Part shown: positions 10,764 through 17,667 of the stretch, in pieces
Layout: every line of letters starts with the position of its first letter
Position numbering within the stretch: the first letter of the stretch is position 1
Assembly (NCBI GenBank): GCA_046754065.1
Contig: JBHHVB010000007.1
Location: 6,881-70,880, forward strand
Source of the DNA: Gammaproteobacteria bacterium
GTDB lineage: Bacteria; Pseudomonadota; Gammaproteobacteria; SZUA-140
Reading direction: 5' to 3'
DNA length: 64,000 bases
The notes under the pieces: generated by a model
What the model was told of the DNA's origin: nothing
Databases searched by the model: none
What the model saw: only the letters and a program-made list of their open reading frames with translations
Translations under genes and position numbers: made by a program

Positions 10764-11393
10764 ATGTTTCGCCACATGTTAATGACTGGCATACTGCTGG
10801 GTATTTTTGCGATAGTCGGCACCGGTATTGTGGCACTGACATTCGATAATACCAAAGAGAGAATCGCGAAAAACGAGCATGAGGCCTTGCTGAAAAGCCT
10901 GCAGGAACTTGTACCGCAACAACTTTATAATAACGACATTACCAGGGATAAAATATCGGTTTCAGCCAAAGAATTATTGGGAACCGATAAACCGGTAACC
11001 ATCTATCGGGCGCGGCTCAACCGCATACCTGTCGCTGCGATCATCTCCCCTGTTGCACCCGATGGGTATAACGGCCCGATGAAATTACTTGTAGCCATTC
11101 AATATGATGGTAATCTGATGGGAGTACGGGTTGTGTCACACAGGGAAACCCCTGGCCTGGGCGACAAGGTCGATTACGAACGCTCAAACTGGGTTGACGG
11201 ATTTAAGGGCTATTCCATTAAAAAAACCGCAAACCTGGGATGGAATGTAAAAAAAGATGGCGGCATCTTTGACCAGTTTACCGGTGCGACAATCACCCCA
11301 CGGGCAGTCGTCAAGGCAGTATATAATAGCCTGAAATTTTATCACTTGAATAGAAATCGAATTTTTAACACACGAGCAAGTATTAATGACTAG
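10764..11393 (+). CDS. rnfG: Rnf complex subunit G (FMN-binding)
   Basis: Start moved to ATG 10764, which has a strong AGAGAGGA SD 5 nt upstream. N-terminal TM followed by an FMN-binding domain. Confidence 0.85.
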
Positions 11394-12078
11394 TCAAAAC
11401 TTCAGACGAATAACTCAGGACGGGCTTTGGAGTAACAACCCCGCGCTAGTGCAAATACTGGGGTTATGTCCATTACTTGCCGTCACCAATTCAGTGGTTA
11501 ACGGCTTGGGTTTAGGGCTGGCAACCATGTTAACGCTGATTCTATCAAACGTTATCGTATCAATGATACGGCATTCCGTTCGACCAGAAATCCGCATCCC
11601 GGTATTTGTTCTGGTTATCGCTTCAATTGTGACGGCTATTGAGTTGGCTATAAATGCCTATTTTCACGAGTTATATAAAATCCTCGGAATCTTCATTCCA
11701 TTGATTGTAACCAACTGTTCCATCATCGCACGCGCTGAAGCATTTGCCTCCAAAAATCCTGTACTCCCGTCGTTTGTAGACGGATTCATGATGGGATTGG
11801 GATTCTTGCTGGTTCTGGTTGTACTCGGTTCTATTCGTGAAGTACTCGGGCAAGGTACACTCTTCTCCCAGGCGCACTTGATGTTTGGCGCCTCTGCTGA
11901 CTGGTTAACCATTACCGTTATCAGTGACTACAAGGGGTTTCTGTTAGCGATTCTTCCACCGGGTGCCTTTATCGGATTAGGTTTCATCATCGCTGGCAAG
12001 AATATTATTGATAACAGAAAACAAAAAAAAGTAATGGTATCCAGTTCTGCGCTGGCACATGTCGAAACACCCGACTAG
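11386..12078 (+). CDS. rnfE: Rnf complex subunit E
   Basis: [39 protein letters not shown] is collinear with E. coli RsxE. The stop codon TAG (12076-12078) lies inside the left inverted repeat of the adjacent MITE-like element. Confidence 0.92.
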
Positions 12079-12366
12079 CCCGAATATTTCACCAAGGATC
12101 CCGGATGATGCCTAACGCCAGACAATTTAGACGCCGCTTTGGAACAAAATCCATAGATAATTCTATCGGTTGCGTGACAAATTGGTATGGAACCAATTTG
12201 AACATCATGGATGCAGCAGTTAGCGTAAAGTCTGGAACATTGACCGAGGGCCGGGATAGGCATCATCTCCGGGTACCATTTGTACTGTTGGGTCAATACG
12301 TTTTTTCTCAAATGAGTCATCAACTTATCTTATCATTTCGCCGCCTTGGTGAAATATTCGGGCTAG
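12075..12366. mobile_element. MITE-like non-autonomous element (292 bp) with perfect 23-bp terminal inverted repeats, between rnfE and nth
   Basis: Left end 12075-12097 ctagcccgaatatttcaccaagg. Right end 12344-12366 ccttggtgaaatattcgggctag is its exact reverse complement. Subterminal inverted repeats cccggatgatgcct / aggcatcatctccggg. No ORF of transposase size. The outer CTAG could instead be a 4-bp palindromic target-site duplication. Confidence 0.7.
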
Positions 12367-12405
12367 ACCTGTGATGATTTATGCAGTTCAGTATTGTACT
12401 CCGGA

Positions 12406-13041
12406 ATGAATAATCAAAAACGACAGAAAATTTTCCAGCGATTAAAAGAAGAAAATCCGCACCCGACTACCGAACTCCTATACAAATCACCATTTGAATT
12501 ATTGATTGCCGTCATTCTTTCTGCACAAGCGACTGACAAAAGCGTTAACAAGGCTACAACAGTTCTATATAAAGTTGCTAACACACCCGAGAAAATATCC
12601 AGGCTGGGAATAACCGGTTTAAAAAAATATATCAAAACGATCGGTCTTTATAACAGCAAGGCGAGGAATATCATCAAAACCTGTCATATAATACAGGAGA
12701 AACACCAGGGTCAGGTACCTGTAAGCCGGGAAGCACTCGAGTCTTTACCCGGGGTTGGCCGAAAGACCGCGAATGTCATACTTAATACGGCGTTTGGTCA
12801 ACCGACCATCGCGGTTGACACACATATTTTCAGGGTTTCAAATCGAACAGGTCTCGCACCCGGCAAAACAGTGCTCGAGGTAGAAAAAAAATTGATTCGA
12901 TTTGTGCCAAATGAATACAAACAGGACGCGCATCATTGGCTCATCCTGCACGGTCGCTATACCTGTATCGCAAAAAAACCCAGGTGTGCCGCTTGCGTCA
13001 TTGAGGATTTATGTGAATTCAAAAAGAAAACTGTGGATTAA
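12406..13041 (+). CDS. nth: Endonuclease III
   Basis: ENPHPTTELLYKSPFELLIAVILSAQATD, LPGVGRKTANV (HhH-GPD) and a C-terminal CX6CX2CX5C cluster. Canonical position downstream of rnfE. Start at ATG 12406; the track start at 12394 is TTG. Confidence 0.9.
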   Translation: MNNQKRQKIFQRLKEENPHPTTELLYKSPFELLIAVILSAQATDKSVNKATTVLYKVANTPEKISRLGITGLKKYIKTIGLYNSKARNIIKTCHIIQEKHQGQVPVSREALESLPGVGRKTANVILNTAFGQPTIAVDTHIFRVSNRTGLAPGKTVLEVEKKLIRFVPNEYKQDAHHWLILHGRYTCIAKKPRCAACVIEDLCEFKKKTVD

Positions 13042-13043
13042 GT

Positions 13044-13490
13044 ATGCTCTTTTACCATGACAGACAAAAGATTCGCCAGTTTTATTTCGATAGCTGGTCC
13101 AAATATCAAAACAACCAACCGCTCGAACCGGTCGAAATGATGATAGCTGAGGTGATCAAGCAGCACCCTGAATACCATATATTACTGGATAGCGAGGTTG
13201 AAAATCAGGATCAAGACTACTTTCCCGAGGCGGGCGAAAGCAATCCGTTTCTTCACATGGGCATGCATATTGCCATTATGGAGCAGCTTTCAACCCAGAG
13301 ACCCAAGGAAATTGTTGAAATTCATCAATCACTTAGTAAAAGTCTGGGTGACTGTCATCAGGCTGAACATCAGATCATGGAATGCCTTGCAGAGATGCTT
13401 TGGCAAAGCCAGAGACAGGGAGAAGCCCCCGATGAAAAAACTTACATTGAAAATTTAACTCAACTGGTAAAAAGGCGGAAAACACCATAG
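13044..13490 (+). CDS. DUF1841-family protein
   Basis: 148-aa ORF starting 2 nt after the nth stop. The EVIKQHPEYHILLDSE pattern is recalled as DUF1841-like. The assignment is weak. Confidence 0.5.
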   Translation: MLFYHDRQKIRQFYFDSWSKYQNNQPLEPVEMMIAEVIKQHPEYHILLDSEVENQDQDYFPEAGESNPFLHMGMHIAIMEQLSTQRPKEIVEIHQSLSKSLGDCHQAEHQIMECLAEMLWQSQRQGEAPDEKTYIENLTQLVKRRKTP

Positions 13491-13632
13491 AATACAACGA
13501 TTGCCAGGGAAATTAAAAATAAACTCATAAATATCAATATCATGGGTTAGCAATAGCAAACAGCAGCAGTGCTTTAAAAAAATAATAATGCGATAAAAGT
13601 TTTTGAACCCCCGAGTCTTTATGATTTAAGAA

Positions 13633-16600
13633 ATGATTTACGAAATAGTGAAAAATCGAGTTTTTTGGCTGGCAATCGTTGCTGTTTTTTTATCCCCATC
13701 AGCATTTTCTGCCGGGACGGCCTGGAAACCGGTCAATCCACTGCCGGTCGGGGCTCATTTGAACGATATTGCCCAAAACTCCAGCCTGCTCGTTACCGTC
13801 GGAGACCAGGGGAATATATTAATCAGCAATGACGGATTTAACTGGTCCAAACAGAACACAAGAACCAACCATCATCTGAATGGGATAGCCTGGACAGGTA
13901 ATCAATTTGTCAGCGTTGGTGAATTCGGGGATATTTTAACAAGTGCTAATGGCACAACCTGGGTCAAACAAAGCGTAAATTCCAGTCTTCATTTATATGA
14001 TGTAGCGGCCAACAACAATATTATTGTCGTCGTCGGGGCAACCGGCTCAATATTTACAAGTGGTGATGGTGTGAGCTGGACCAGCCAGACTTCGGGTACA
14101 GTCAACTCATTATTCGGTATTACCTGGACCGGATCTATGTTTTTTGCCGTCGGCAAATCCGGAACGATATTATCAAGCAGTGATGGATTGACATGGACTG
14201 CTCAATCATCAGGATCCGTTAGCTGGCTTAGATCGATTACCAGAATACAAACCAACAATATTGATAGCCTTTTTGCGGTTGGAGACAGCGCAACAGTATT
14301 ATCCAGCAATGATGGTGTCACCTGGGTTCCAGTTGATATGTCGACGGTCACGACAATGTCATTACGCGATATTGAGACTGATGGAACGGTAATCGTGGCG
14401 AGTGGCGTTGCTGGCACGATAGTCACAAGCTCAAATGACGGACAATTATGGCAATTGCAAAGCTCGGGAACCTCTAAGGCCGTTAATGCATTATTACGGA
14501 CATCCACTCGGTTTGTCGCCACCGGAGAATCTGGAGAGGTTTTGACCAGTCCGGACGCGCTAACATGGCGCTCACAAAAATCCGAATTCGAAACCAATTT
14601 CCTGGAAATTATCAGTACCGGCACGCAAAGTGGTATCGAGTACATTGCGGCTGGTTCCTCAGGCGCCATTTTTACCAGCACCGATGCATCCAGTTGGCAA
14701 TCAACGACCAACACCAGCAATCAACTTCGTGCTGTCGTCTGGAATGGCACAATCTATCTGGCGATCGGCACAAATGGAACACTGGTTAGCAGCAGCGATG
14801 CAGCATCCTGGGCTCCGCTAACTACCAATATCGCGGACTCCTTAACAGATATTGTCTGGGATGGTGCACAGTTTGTCATGCTCGGACAATCTGCAAGCAA
14901 CACTAGCAATATTCACCGAAGCACAGATGGCATTAACTGGACCACAACGCCCATTCCATCGGTTACGCTAAACGATTTATTATGGGCCGATAACCAGTTC
15001 ATCGGTGTAGGCAATGGCGGCGCAATCCTGACGAGTAATGACGCAATCCACTGGATGACGCAAAACTCCGGAACTACTAACAACTTGAACAGCGTAGCGT
15101 GGAATGGATCATCAGTTCCCAGTAAGCAACTCATAGCAATTGGAGAACTCGGGACGATTCTGCTCAGTACTGATGGTATTACGTGGACAGAGTCACTACT
15201 CAACCCGGTGGTAAAAGATATCATCTGGAACCCCAAGGATACCATTGATATTGAAGTTGAAGATGAAAAGTTTTTTACTGTCGGACCCAATGGTCTGATC
15301 GTCAGCAGCGATGACGGTCAGACCTGGTTTGTACAAATTTCCGGAACCACTCAAACCGTGGAAAGTATTACCTGGGATGGTGACCAGCTGGTTGCAGTTG
15401 GAAAAAGTGGAATAATTCTAAGTAGTCAGGACGGAATTAGCTGGAATACCCAGGCTTCAGGAACCAGCTCAAATCTGGTGGATATTGTCTGGAATGGGAG
15501 CCTTTTCGTCGCATCCGGAAAGAATGGCACAATACTGACCAGCCCCGATGCCATCACCTGGACGCAAAGAACCTCGGGAACATCAAATCAGATAGCTGAC
15601 ACGATCTGGGACAACGTCGCTGGCCAGTTTGTGTCAGTTGGTTCTGCCGGTACCATCCTGACCAGCCCGGATGCGATTACATGGACGCCCAGGAATTCTG
15701 GACTTCCCGGTGGAACTACCATTTACCTCGATACAATTACCTCGAGCGGTACAATATATGTTTTGGGCGGAACCCTGGGCACGATTCTAACCAGCCCCGA
15801 TGGCGTTACCTGGACATCACGAACATCCAATGTGACAGGTCAAATCCTCCGCATTATCTGGAACAGTGATCTTGGCCTTTTCGTTGGCGTTACATCATTA
15901 GGCAATGTTATTACTAGCCCCGATGGTATTACCTGGATAGTAAGCGCGTCCCCGGTGAATGATACTATCTATGACCTTGCGTGGAATGGACAAAAGCATG
16001 TGGGCGTCGGCATAAAGATTCCGGTCATTACCAGTAGCGATGCTGTTAGCTGGACCTCTGCACCTGATAAATTGGTAAATAATCTAACCAGCATCGTCTG
16101 GAACAATGATTTAAACCAGTATGCTGCTGTGGGTGCGCTCGGGACAGTCACAACCAGCCCGGATGGAATTGTCTGGACCAAATCATCCACATTTACATCG
16201 CAAAACCTGAATCACATCATTTGGGATAACGTTTCGCAATACCTGGTAACATCAGCGAGCGGTTCTGTTTTGACCAGCGCGGACGGGACCAACTGGACAC
16301 TCAGGCCAACGGGTAAGAATGTTAATCTTAATGAAGTTATCTGGAATAACACCCAGTCACTGTATGTAACCGTGGGATCAAACGGCGCTATTCTTTCAAG
16401 CCCCGACGGCATTAACTGGACTACCCGTTCATTGAATTCCAGTAGCGAACTTCGCACGCTACTCTATACAGGTACCAGTTTTGCGGCGGCAGGCGAAGGC
16501 GGCGCGTTTCTTACCAGTATTGATGGTCAAACATGGATTCAACAAAATACAGGCGTGAGTTTTCGCATTAACGCCATTGCGAGAAACAATTCGCAATACG

Positions 16601-17667
16601 TCGCAGTTGGTCAAAAACCGGGAATCGATCCGGCGACTAACCAGACTATTCAAACAGGAGCGGCTTTGACAAGCCCGGATGGTATCACCTGGACCGAGCA
16701 AAATCCAAATACATTGAATCAGCTACTAGACATCCTGTGGGATGGCTCTAAATTTATAGCAGTGGGTACGGTTGGTGAAATCATCACCAGTGCAGACGGT
16801 ATCAGCTGGAGCAAACAGTCTTCGAATACAACCCGTTCACTGCGATCAATTACGACCTCAGGGGCACAGATCGTCGCTGTTGGCCAAAACACAACAATTC
16901 TGACAAGCACAGATGGCGTAGGTTGGGAGACTTCGACCTTTGGATTGGCAAAGGCATTGGAAAGCGTTCTATGGAATGGCTCAAGTTTTATTGCCGTGGG
17001 CGAAGGCGGTACTATATTGACCAGCATTGATGGCAAAAACTGGACCGCTCAGTCTTCAGGTACTGATCATTGGTTGTACGATGTCACCTGGGATAATAAT
17101 AGCAAGCGGTATTTAATTGTCGGTGGTGGCAATGTAATTCTTAGCAGCTCAGGCAATGAACCTAACCTTTTAATTGAAAGTGGCGTTAATGCAAGTTCTT
17201 TTCTTGTCGACGACAGTATTAGCTATGCCATAACCGTCCGGAACAAGGGACAAATACCAGCCACAGGCATCAGCGTCTCAGACTCATTACCTGCCAAGCT
17301 TAGTTATATATCGGCTACCTCCAGCGACCCCCAGGTCTCCTGTAATCAAAGCAGCGCTTTATTGACGTGTAATATTGGAACCTTGGCCGCTAACCAAAGT
17401 GTCGTAGTCACGGTGAACGTCACCCCAACGGCTTCAGGAACAATCGATAACACCTTCCAGGTTGCAGCCAGTGAGGAGGAGCTCGATTTAACCGACAATA
17501 TATCAACAAGCAGCATTGTCGTTAGCGCAAAACCACTGGCAGGCGGTAACGATACCGGCTCTTCCGGTAGTGGCATCGGCGGCCTTGATTACTCTACAAT
17601 GCTTCTGTTGTTTCTGGGTAGCGTACTCGTCACCCAGCGCAGAACTAAAACGAAGAAAGCCAGGTAA
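13633..17667 (+). CDS. Secreted 1344-aa multi-beta-propeller repeat protein (Ycf48/BNR-like S-x-D-G-x-T-W repeats) with C-terminal DUF11 domain and putative C-terminal sorting signal
   Basis: Signal peptide. About 25 tandem ~45-aa repeats of the form GxxGTILTSxDGxTWTxxxSGTxxxLxxIxWNGxxFVAVG. A C-terminal DUF11-like segment (VRNKGQIPATGISVSDSLPAKLSYISAT...VVVTVNVTP). Terminal tail SGSGIGGLDYSTMLLLFLGSVLVTQRRTKTKKAR. Confidence 0.75.
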   Translation: MIYEIVKNRVFWLAIVAVFLSPSAFSAGTAWKPVNPLPVGAHLNDIAQNSSLLVTVGDQGNILISNDGFNWSKQNTRTNHHLNGIAWTGNQFVSVGEFGDILTSANGTTWVKQSVNSSLHLYDVAANNNIIVVVGATGSIFTSGDGVSWTSQTSGTVNSLFGITWTGSMFFAVGKSGTILSSSDGLTWTAQSSGSVSWLRSITRIQTNNIDSLFAVGDSATVLSSNDGVTWVPVDMSTVTTMSLRDIETDGTVIVASGVAGTIVTSSNDGQLWQLQSSGTSKAVNALLRTSTRFVATGESGEVLTSPDALTWRSQKSEFETNFLEIISTGTQSGIEYIAAGSSGAIFTSTDASSWQSTTNTSNQLRAVVWNGTIYLAIGTNGTLVSSSDAASWAPLTTNIADSLTDIVWDGAQFVMLGQSASNTSNIHRSTDGINWTTTPIPSVTLNDLLWADNQFIGVGNGGAILTSNDAIHWMTQNSGTTNNLNSVAWNGSSVPSKQLIAIGELGTILLSTDGITWTESLLNPVVKDIIWNPKDTIDIEVEDEKFFTVGPNGLIVSSDDGQTWFVQISGTTQTVESITWDGDQLVAVGKSGIILSSQDGISWNTQASGTSSNLVDIVWNGSLFVASGKNGTILTSPDAITWTQRTSGTSNQIADTIWDNVAGQFVSVGSAGTILTSPDAITWTPRNSGLPGGTTIYLDTITSSGTIYVLGGTLGTILTSPDGVTWTSRTSNVTGQILRIIWNSDLGLFVGVTSLGNVITSPDGITWIVSASPVNDTIYDLAWNGQKHVGVGIKIPVITSSDAVSWTSAPDKLVNNLTSIVWNNDLNQYAAVGALGTVTTSPDGIVWTKSSTFTSQNLNHIIWDNVSQYLVTSASGSVLTSADGTNWTLRPTGKNVNLNEVIWNNTQSLYVTVGSNGAILSSPDGINWTTRSLNSSSELRTLLYTGTSFAAAGEGGAFLTSIDGQTWIQQNTGVSFRINAIARNNSQYVAVGQKPGIDPATNQTIQTGAALTSPDGITWTEQNPNTLNQLLDILWDGSKFIAVGTVGEIITSADGISWSKQSSNTTRSLRSITTSGAQIVAVGQNTTILTSTDGVGWETSTFGLAKALESVLWNGSSFIAVGEGGTILTSIDGKNWTAQSSGTDHWLYDVTWDNNSKRYLIVGGGNVILSSSGNEPNLLIESGVNASSFLVDDSISYAITVRNKGQIPATGISVSDSLPAKLSYISATSSDPQVSCNQSSALLTCNIGTLAANQSVVVTVNVTPTASGTIDNTFQVAASEEELDLTDNISTSSIVVSAKPLAGGNDTGSSGSGIGGLDYSTMLLLFLGSVLVTQRRTKTKKAR

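Follow-up and report, generated by a model that had tools for sequence, protein, structure and literature searches.

Within the window, i.e. the complete 64,000-nt stretch of DNA analysed here, rnfE (11386..12078, plus strand; 230 aa) is followed on the same strand by nth (12406..13041; 211 aa), which codes for endonuclease III. The rnfE assignment is based on the ORF list, on the Pfam family Rnf-Nqr recorded for an identical product, and on homologues named RnfE; the nth product carries HhH-GPD and HHH domains. The rnfE stop codon TAG is located at 12076-12078 and the nth ATG at 12406, leaving a gap of 327 nt between the two genes.

An inverted repeat delimits most of this gap. The sequence CTAGCCCGAATATTTCACCAAGG occupies 12075-12097, and 12344-12366 is its exact reverse complement. 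Shuffled sequence contained no match to the 23-nt repeat even with three mismatches permitted, and no second copy of the repeat was found within the window even at five mismatches. The 23-nt repeat is composed of a 4-bp target-site duplication, CTAG, and a 19-bp terminal inverted repeat. The left CTAG (12075..12078), in which the rnfE stop codon lies, and the identical right CTAG (12363..12366) form a direct repeat that encloses an element of 284 bp (12079..12362). The element is assigned to the minus strand, in which reading both of its termini align with a wider family described below. Its terminal inverted repeats are perfect (19 of 19 nt) and have the sequence CCCGAATATTTCACCAAGG. An IRR-type end (12079..12097, plus strand) is followed by a subterminal ATCCCGG (12098-12104) that matches ATCCGG of the wider family, and an IRL-type end (12344..12362, minus strand) lies at the nth side, where 39 nt separate the element, right CTAG included, from nth. 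The initial annotation had described a MITE-like insert of 292 bp with perfect 23-bp ends; the repeat is exact as given there, while the boundaries are refined here to 284 bp with 19-bp ends plus CTAG. The subterminal inverted repeats that it also listed are real: 11 nt are perfectly paired (12104-12114 / 12257-12267), and in the predicted fold the pairing extends to about 15 pairs with one bulge between the left arm CCCGGATGATGCCTA (12100..12114) and the right arm TAGGCATCATCTCCGGG (12257..12272). A small hairpin followed by a T-run, CCGATAGAATTATCTATGGATTTT, was read from alignments at 12146..12169 on the minus strand, antisense to rnfE and nth. Its counterpart in the wider family is CCATAGCCGGGCTATGGTTTTT, and it falls under the threshold of the terminator scan.

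To reconstruct the site before insertion, positions 12079-12366 were removed in silico, which yields gaC-TAG-acctgtg... and an rnfE-nth spacer of 39 bp. Under the duplication model the target CTAG already contained the in-frame TAG, and the stop codon and length of rnfE were kept after insertion. The proposal that rnfE owes its 3' end to the insertion was therefore abandoned, because the target already read gaC-TAG-acc; in keeping with this, RnfE has 230 aa here and 226-244 aa in relatives. The rnfE homologues closest to the window show 77-79% RnfE identity. Three of these relatives were fetched, and all have the order rnfC-D-G-E, nth and a gene for a DUF1841 protein, as in the window. Their rnfE and nth genes are spaced by 20, 53 and 57 bp, and the element is absent. 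The spacer of 292 bp is thus not conserved at this junction, although at 77-79% RnfE identity these relatives do not include a strain-level empty site. Farther downstream, beyond nth and the DUF1841 gene, the window contains a 1344-aa ORF (13633-17667, plus strand) for which Pfam records no family; in relatives, too, this position is taken by large ORFs.

The junctions were also inspected in Logan contigs from sequencing runs SRR29324588-94, which encode identical RnfE and Nth. Four to five independent runs yielded contigs that cross from rnfE into the left end or from the right end into nth, and the CTAG junctions in them match those of the window; the right CTAG is seen, for example, in contigs L004 and L005. 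Those on the rnfE side cross the entire left repeat and stop at 12103/12104, and those on the nth side begin at 12275/12280 and cross the right repeat into nth. Since both junctions are present in independent Logan assemblies, the insertion at the rnfE-nth site is real and not an assembly artefact. Misplacement of a repeat between rnfE and nth during assembly would fit one detail: the window differs from the Logan contigs at three to four positions in 12275-12366 (12278, 12310, 12316 and 12343), while the 3.7-kb flank on the rnfE side is identical and that on the nth side shows 0-1 difference. Given the identical CTAG junctions on both sides in four to five runs, such an artefact is nevertheless extremely improbable, and the differences within the element suggest either that sister copies were mixed in one of the assemblies or that copies have undergone gene conversion. 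Breaks at 12104 would be expected of a 31-mer assembly graph if every 31-mer from 12075 onward is shared among copies; breakage inside the element is taken as indirect evidence that the element is repeated.

Sister copies were recognized through the reading frames that they contain. In the annotation of the source bin, where the locus lies on a 76,134-bp contig, an 81-codon ORF on the minus strand (12075..12320) is listed as hypothetical protein ACE5EH_02620, with protein accession MFQ5469182.1, and its stop codon is the duplicated TAG. When compared with 1.84 billion representative proteins, this ORF retrieved, apart from itself, two short ORFs related to it and a 739-aa protein of repetitive sequence. 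The last, at 26% identity, was taken as spurious and rejected as a homologue. By indexed search and cluster look-up, all real relatives of the ORF fall within one bin, with locus tags ACE5EH_. There are eight such sister ORFs (ACE5EH_00190, 00450 [partial], 01960, 02185, 03875, 04160, 09325 and 13270 [partial]), and together with ACE5EH_02620 the nine are spread over contigs of eight different sizes. The copies fall into at least three length classes. Four of their ORFs have 112 aa and one has 109 aa. Relative to the commonest, 112-aa copies, protein alignment places the junction of a 93-nt (31-codon) in-frame deletion at 12207..12212 of the window copy, with identical Ile-His codons at both edges of the gap. 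A 45-aa sister ORF has lost most of the interior and shifts frame into the terminal repeat. Several of the translations end in ...GSLVKYSG, which is a reading of the terminal repeat. With the ends and duplications of the sisters deduced from ORF translations, the element is present in at least nine copies in this genome, that is, at least eight copies in addition to the one at rnfE-nth.

The alternative that the locus holds a small protein-coding gene, either ACE5EH_02620 or the 89-aa ORF on the plus strand, was weighed against these data. Most sister copies, including the four of 112 aa and the one of 109 aa, keep the minus-strand ORF open, and the 93-nt difference of the window copy is in frame. 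On the other hand, the minus-strand ORF crosses the terminal repeat and terminates in the duplicated target TAG, and its ATG is not preceded by a Shine-Dalgarno-like sequence. Amino-acid changes from copy to copy are mostly non-conservative (Y/S, G/R, G/C, P/L, F/S), and other copies are frameshifted or truncated (P0123, P0130). Pfam assigned neither element ORF to a family, and among the 1.84 billion representative proteins there is no homologue outside one genome. A look-up of exact products for the element ORFs and for sister ORFs P0122, P0125 and P0123 returned none on record. A gene in either frame is accordingly very unlikely, and the nine ACE5EH hypothetical proteins are probably annotation artefacts, namely reading frames through MITE copies.

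The search was extended beyond this bin with the 19-mer CCCGAATATTTCACCAAGG, which was matched to one genome per species and gave 64 loci. About 26 of the 64 matches are coding (in-frame PEYFTK) and were discarded; they lie in valyl-tRNA-synthetase-like genes of Anaerolineae/Chloroflexi and in a conserved alphaproteobacterial gene reading ...RPEYFTKEFSLFPAWPRFDYERAL (loci of this type include L011, L019, L026, L040, L046 and L063, and L012, L016, L028 and L037). Short elements with the same 19-mer end number 37 and are distributed over five genome bins: the gammaproteobacterial bin CAWDDX01 (25), an Acidimicrobiia-labelled bin (7), Wenzhouxiangellaceae (3), Xanthomonadales (1) and Lysobacterales (1). 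A metagenome scan with a 22-mer, consisting of the 19-mer and the next three bases, added 19 further loci, whereas a metagenome scan with the subfamily-specific 19-mer AAGGATCCCGGATGATGCC gave no match. In all, about 55 elements from other gammaproteobacterial bins and from metagenomes bear the same 19-bp end. Most copies measure 241/242 bp; a second class is of about 178 bp, and shorter truncated forms occur too. Among the latter are forms of about 110 bp (L041, L070/L084 and L078) whose terminus is an internal CCTATCCGGG, after which comes TTAG or TTAT. The 7-mer TATCCGG occurs both internally and in the normal right end, and these forms resemble products of a deletion from one occurrence to the other; their two flanking 4-mers each differ at one position. 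The Acidimicrobiia-labelled bin, CAXMRK01, contributes seven MITE-bearing contigs (L021, L022, L036, L038, L041, L052 and L058) with a G+C content of 43-46%; their elements are nearly identical to those on Lysobacterales and marine-sediment contigs, which could be due to a binning error or to horizontal spread.

Comparison of the window element with the wider family shows that similarity is concentrated at the termini. On the minus strand, going inward at the IRL-type end, the window element reads CCAAGG-CGGCGAAATGA and the wider family CCAAGG-CGGACGAACAAATGA; at the other terminus the respective sequences are CCGGGATCC-TTGG and CCGGATCC-CTGG. A BLAST match between the window element and the 241-bp family covers about 40 nt at the terminus with 83-85% identity. 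The interiors are weakly similar (z = 2.6 against shuffles), and a hairpin followed by T residues occurs at the corresponding position in both. The window element is a separate subfamily that shares the family ends, a pattern expected if the same kind of transposase moves both.

The flanks of the wider family settle the size of the target-site duplication. In 25 of 40 non-redundant complete copies the flanking 4-mers are identical, and all conform to YTAR (12 TTAG, 8 CTAA, 3 CTAG and 2 TTAA); at flank position 1, as at position 4, the two sides agree in 34 of the 40. The window CTAG is palindromic and, taken alone, fits a duplication of TA as well as one of 4 bp. An element of the IS630/Tc1-mariner type, duplicating only TA within an NTAN target, was considered for this reason, and apparent TTAA repeats have been described for one member of the IS630 family (PMC3606827). 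However, 20 of the 25 perfect duplications are non-palindromic TTAG or CTAA in direct repeat, and positions 1 and 4 would have to agree in 34 of 40 copies without being duplicated. As a TA-only duplication cannot yield matched TTAG/CTAA flanks, an IS630/mariner origin is excluded for the family and is scarcely credible for the window element. The duplication is 4 bp at YTAR and not TA alone, because most matched flanks are non-palindromic 4-mers in direct repeat. The suggestion in the initial annotation that the outer CTAG is a 4-bp YTAR-type target-site duplication is thereby borne out.

Like the window copy, many family members abut a stop codon. A duplication whose TAR serves as the stop codon of an ORF of 100 codons or more, in either orientation, is present in 16 of the 40 copies, as compared with about 21% in a crude control made up of those YTAR sites of the same loci that lie outside long ORFs (p ~0.005). 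Selection alone is enough to explain this excess: YTAR holds TAA or TAG, and insertions just past genes do little harm. The duplication regenerates the stop codon and leaves the gene intact, which may be the reason why 40% of the copies abut a stop codon.

At two CAWDDX01 loci the outer edge of a MITE end is occupied by an element of 1.64 kb that codes for an IS110-family transposase, with the Pfam families DEDD_Tnp_IS110 and Transposase_20. It lies at about 5470-7105 in L049 (oriented with the MITE end forward) and at about 3659-5294 in L025, and positions 1-656 of L020 also belong to an element of this type. The two CAWDDX01 loci share 100% identity over 1,664 nt, a block made up of this element and the first 28 nt of the MITE. 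In a third case, on an Azotimanducaceae chromosome, identity is 73% in the IS110-type body and 97.6% in the 41-nt junction. The junctions have the form ...CT|AGACATAAT...CATATC|AA|CCCGAAT, so that the CTAA duplication of the MITE is apparently split; the right-hand duplication in L049 is intact (CTAA). This looks like a site-specific IS110/IS1111-type element that uses the MITE end as its target. A search of L025 and L049 against Rfam gave no guide-RNA match.

Next, the element was considered at the level of RNA. Its predicted fold has a free energy of -109 kcal/mol (z = -5.2 versus shuffled sequence; z = -8 when folded as DNA). A stability so far beyond that of shuffled sequence is what would be expected if the rnfE-nth junction had a conserved and structured intergenic RNA, or an attenuator, of its own, but it is equally what any inverted-repeat element would yield. 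Relatives with the same gene order lack the structure, copies are found at several unrelated loci of the same genome, and elements with the same ends adjoin unrelated genes in other bacteria. Furthermore, Rfam returned no match for 11000-13500 at E values up to 1, and scans of 11900-12500 on both strands detected neither promoter-like nor terminator-like sites. On the plus strand, from which rnfE and nth are read, no U-run follows the hairpin; the sequence 3' of the right arm is ACCTGTGATGA. A native structured RNA at this junction is thus most improbable. The initial annotation had also raised the idea of a hairpin attenuator between rnfE and nth. The long RNA hairpin is real, but attenuation is not supported in view of the missing plus-strand U-run and the negative terminator scan.

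In Escherichia coli the corresponding genes form the rsxABCDGE-nth operon, and by analogy nth is probably transcribed here by read-through from the rnf operon. The operon mRNA would then contain a long hairpin in which 23 perfect pairs are joined by about 15 further ones. Its effect on nth expression may be neutral, and a neutral insertion is taken as the default. Correia elements of Neisseria and ERIC elements of enterobacteria are likewise short inverted-repeat elements that lie intergenically in operons, are co-transcribed and give rise to long RNA hairpins, the stems of which are RNase III substrates. The window element resembles them as a short inverted-repeat element between operon genes, and only by analogy might its hairpin be cleaved. 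Correia elements differ in that they duplicate TA and have known promoter and IHF sites, as opposed to the 4-bp CTAG duplication of the window element.

Taken together, the data make it highly probable that the rnfE-nth gap contains a 284-bp non-autonomous cut-and-paste transposon (MITE) inserted in the CTAG that holds the rnfE stop codon. Its anatomy, target duplication and family membership, the multiple copies in the same genome and the absence from relatives are matters of observation, whereas the events that produced them can be described in conditional terms. A transposase supplied in trans, putatively of the DDE type, would bind to the 19-bp ends, make a cut with a 4-nt stagger in the YTAR target and insert the element there. 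Repair of the gaps would generate the CTAG...CTAG duplication. As the stop codon is part of the duplicated target, rnfE is left unchanged, and the rnfE-nth spacer grows from 39 to 327 nt. The insertion is recent enough for perfect ends and a perfect duplication to persist. The mobile, MITE-like nature of the insert proposed in the initial annotation has thus been corroborated by additional copies and by the short spacers (20-57 bp) of relatives. In terms of what defines a MITE, the element is shorter than about 500 bp and lacks a transposase gene, has inverted repeats and a duplication of fixed length, and occurs in dispersed copies. While the element is of a well-known kind, the repeat family itself appears to be undescribed.

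For annotation, a single repeat family accounts for the 327-nt gap, for ACE5EH_02620 and for the eight sister ORFs. The same family breaks short-read assemblies of this organism. The locus is also a clean case of a YTAR-targeting element that has landed on a stop codon and left the gene intact. If the transposase were found, a MITE family that occurs in several lineages of uncultured gammaproteobacteria could be assigned to an IS family.

A full-length IS or other autonomous partner with matching ends was sought in 0.65 Mb of fetched loci around the copies, in plasmids and in viral contigs, and was found in none of them. In the 0.65 Mb, neither a screen for pairs of ends at distances of 0.6-4 kb nor one for ORFs present in several copies revealed a transposase partner; the repeated ORFs proved to be orthologous host genes brought in by the coding matches and were dismissed. 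BLAST searches of plasmids with the element, the 241-bp consensus and a 39-nt end produced matches at chance level only. Viral contigs contained neither the 19-mer nor its IRR variant, and 66 matches to a 15-mer were all attributed to chance, as they had no YTAR flank or partner end. A literature search for the end sequences returned one unrelated paper on sugarcane, and the ends are not printed in the papers found. Two leads were dropped: ...GSLVKYSG* as the C-terminus of a transposase, since both ends read alike on account of the inverted repeats, and a resemblance of the reversed end to that of IS5 (GGTG..AAT), since the orientation is wrong.

Among known systems, the IS5 family had been put forward as the source of the element. 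IS5 ends begin GGAAGGTGCGAA, and ends of the IS5 group start with GG or GA, such as GGAAGGT.... IS5 of E. coli duplicates 4 bp at a 5'-YTAR-3' target (PMC5009759). The MITE family shares this pattern of YTAR targets and 4-bp duplication, which fits the proposed origin. In contrast, IS5 is autonomous and of about 1.2 kb, whereas the MITE family ends start with CCCGAAT; ends such as CCCGAATATTTCACCAAGG are unlike those of the IS5 type, and no transposase with such ends was found in the sequences searched, so that the proposed IS5 link is only partly supported. The closest parallel in form is MITEPsy1 of Pseudomonas syringae pv. phaseolicola, which is derived from ISPsy2 of the IS5 family (PMC3189936). 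It is a non-coding element of 100 nt with inverted repeats of 18-19 nt and a 4-nt CTAG/YTAA duplication, is present in several copies and is mobilised in trans (PMC3189936). The two elements are alike in being short, non-coding and multi-copy, with ends of about 19 nt and a 4-nt duplication of the CTAG/YTAA type. They differ in length (100 versus 284 nt), in their ends (GGAAGGTCTGAAAAAGCC in MITEPsy1, as opposed to CCCGAATATTTCACCAAGG) and in that the parent IS of MITEPsy1 is known.

Members of the IS1380 family and the eukaryotic piggyBac have ends beginning with CC(C) and duplicate 4-5 bp. For piggyBac, integration at TTAA is described (PMC7351741). These general features recur in the MITE family, which has CCC ends, a 4-bp duplication and TTAA among its four targets. 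It is a speculative and rather unlikely possibility that the elements form a CCCGAAT-ended, YTAR-duplicating group with an undescribed autonomous member, perhaps closer to IS1380/piggyBac than to IS5. In this comparison too there is a difference in target choice, as the commonest targets of the MITE family are TTAG and CTAA and not TTAA.
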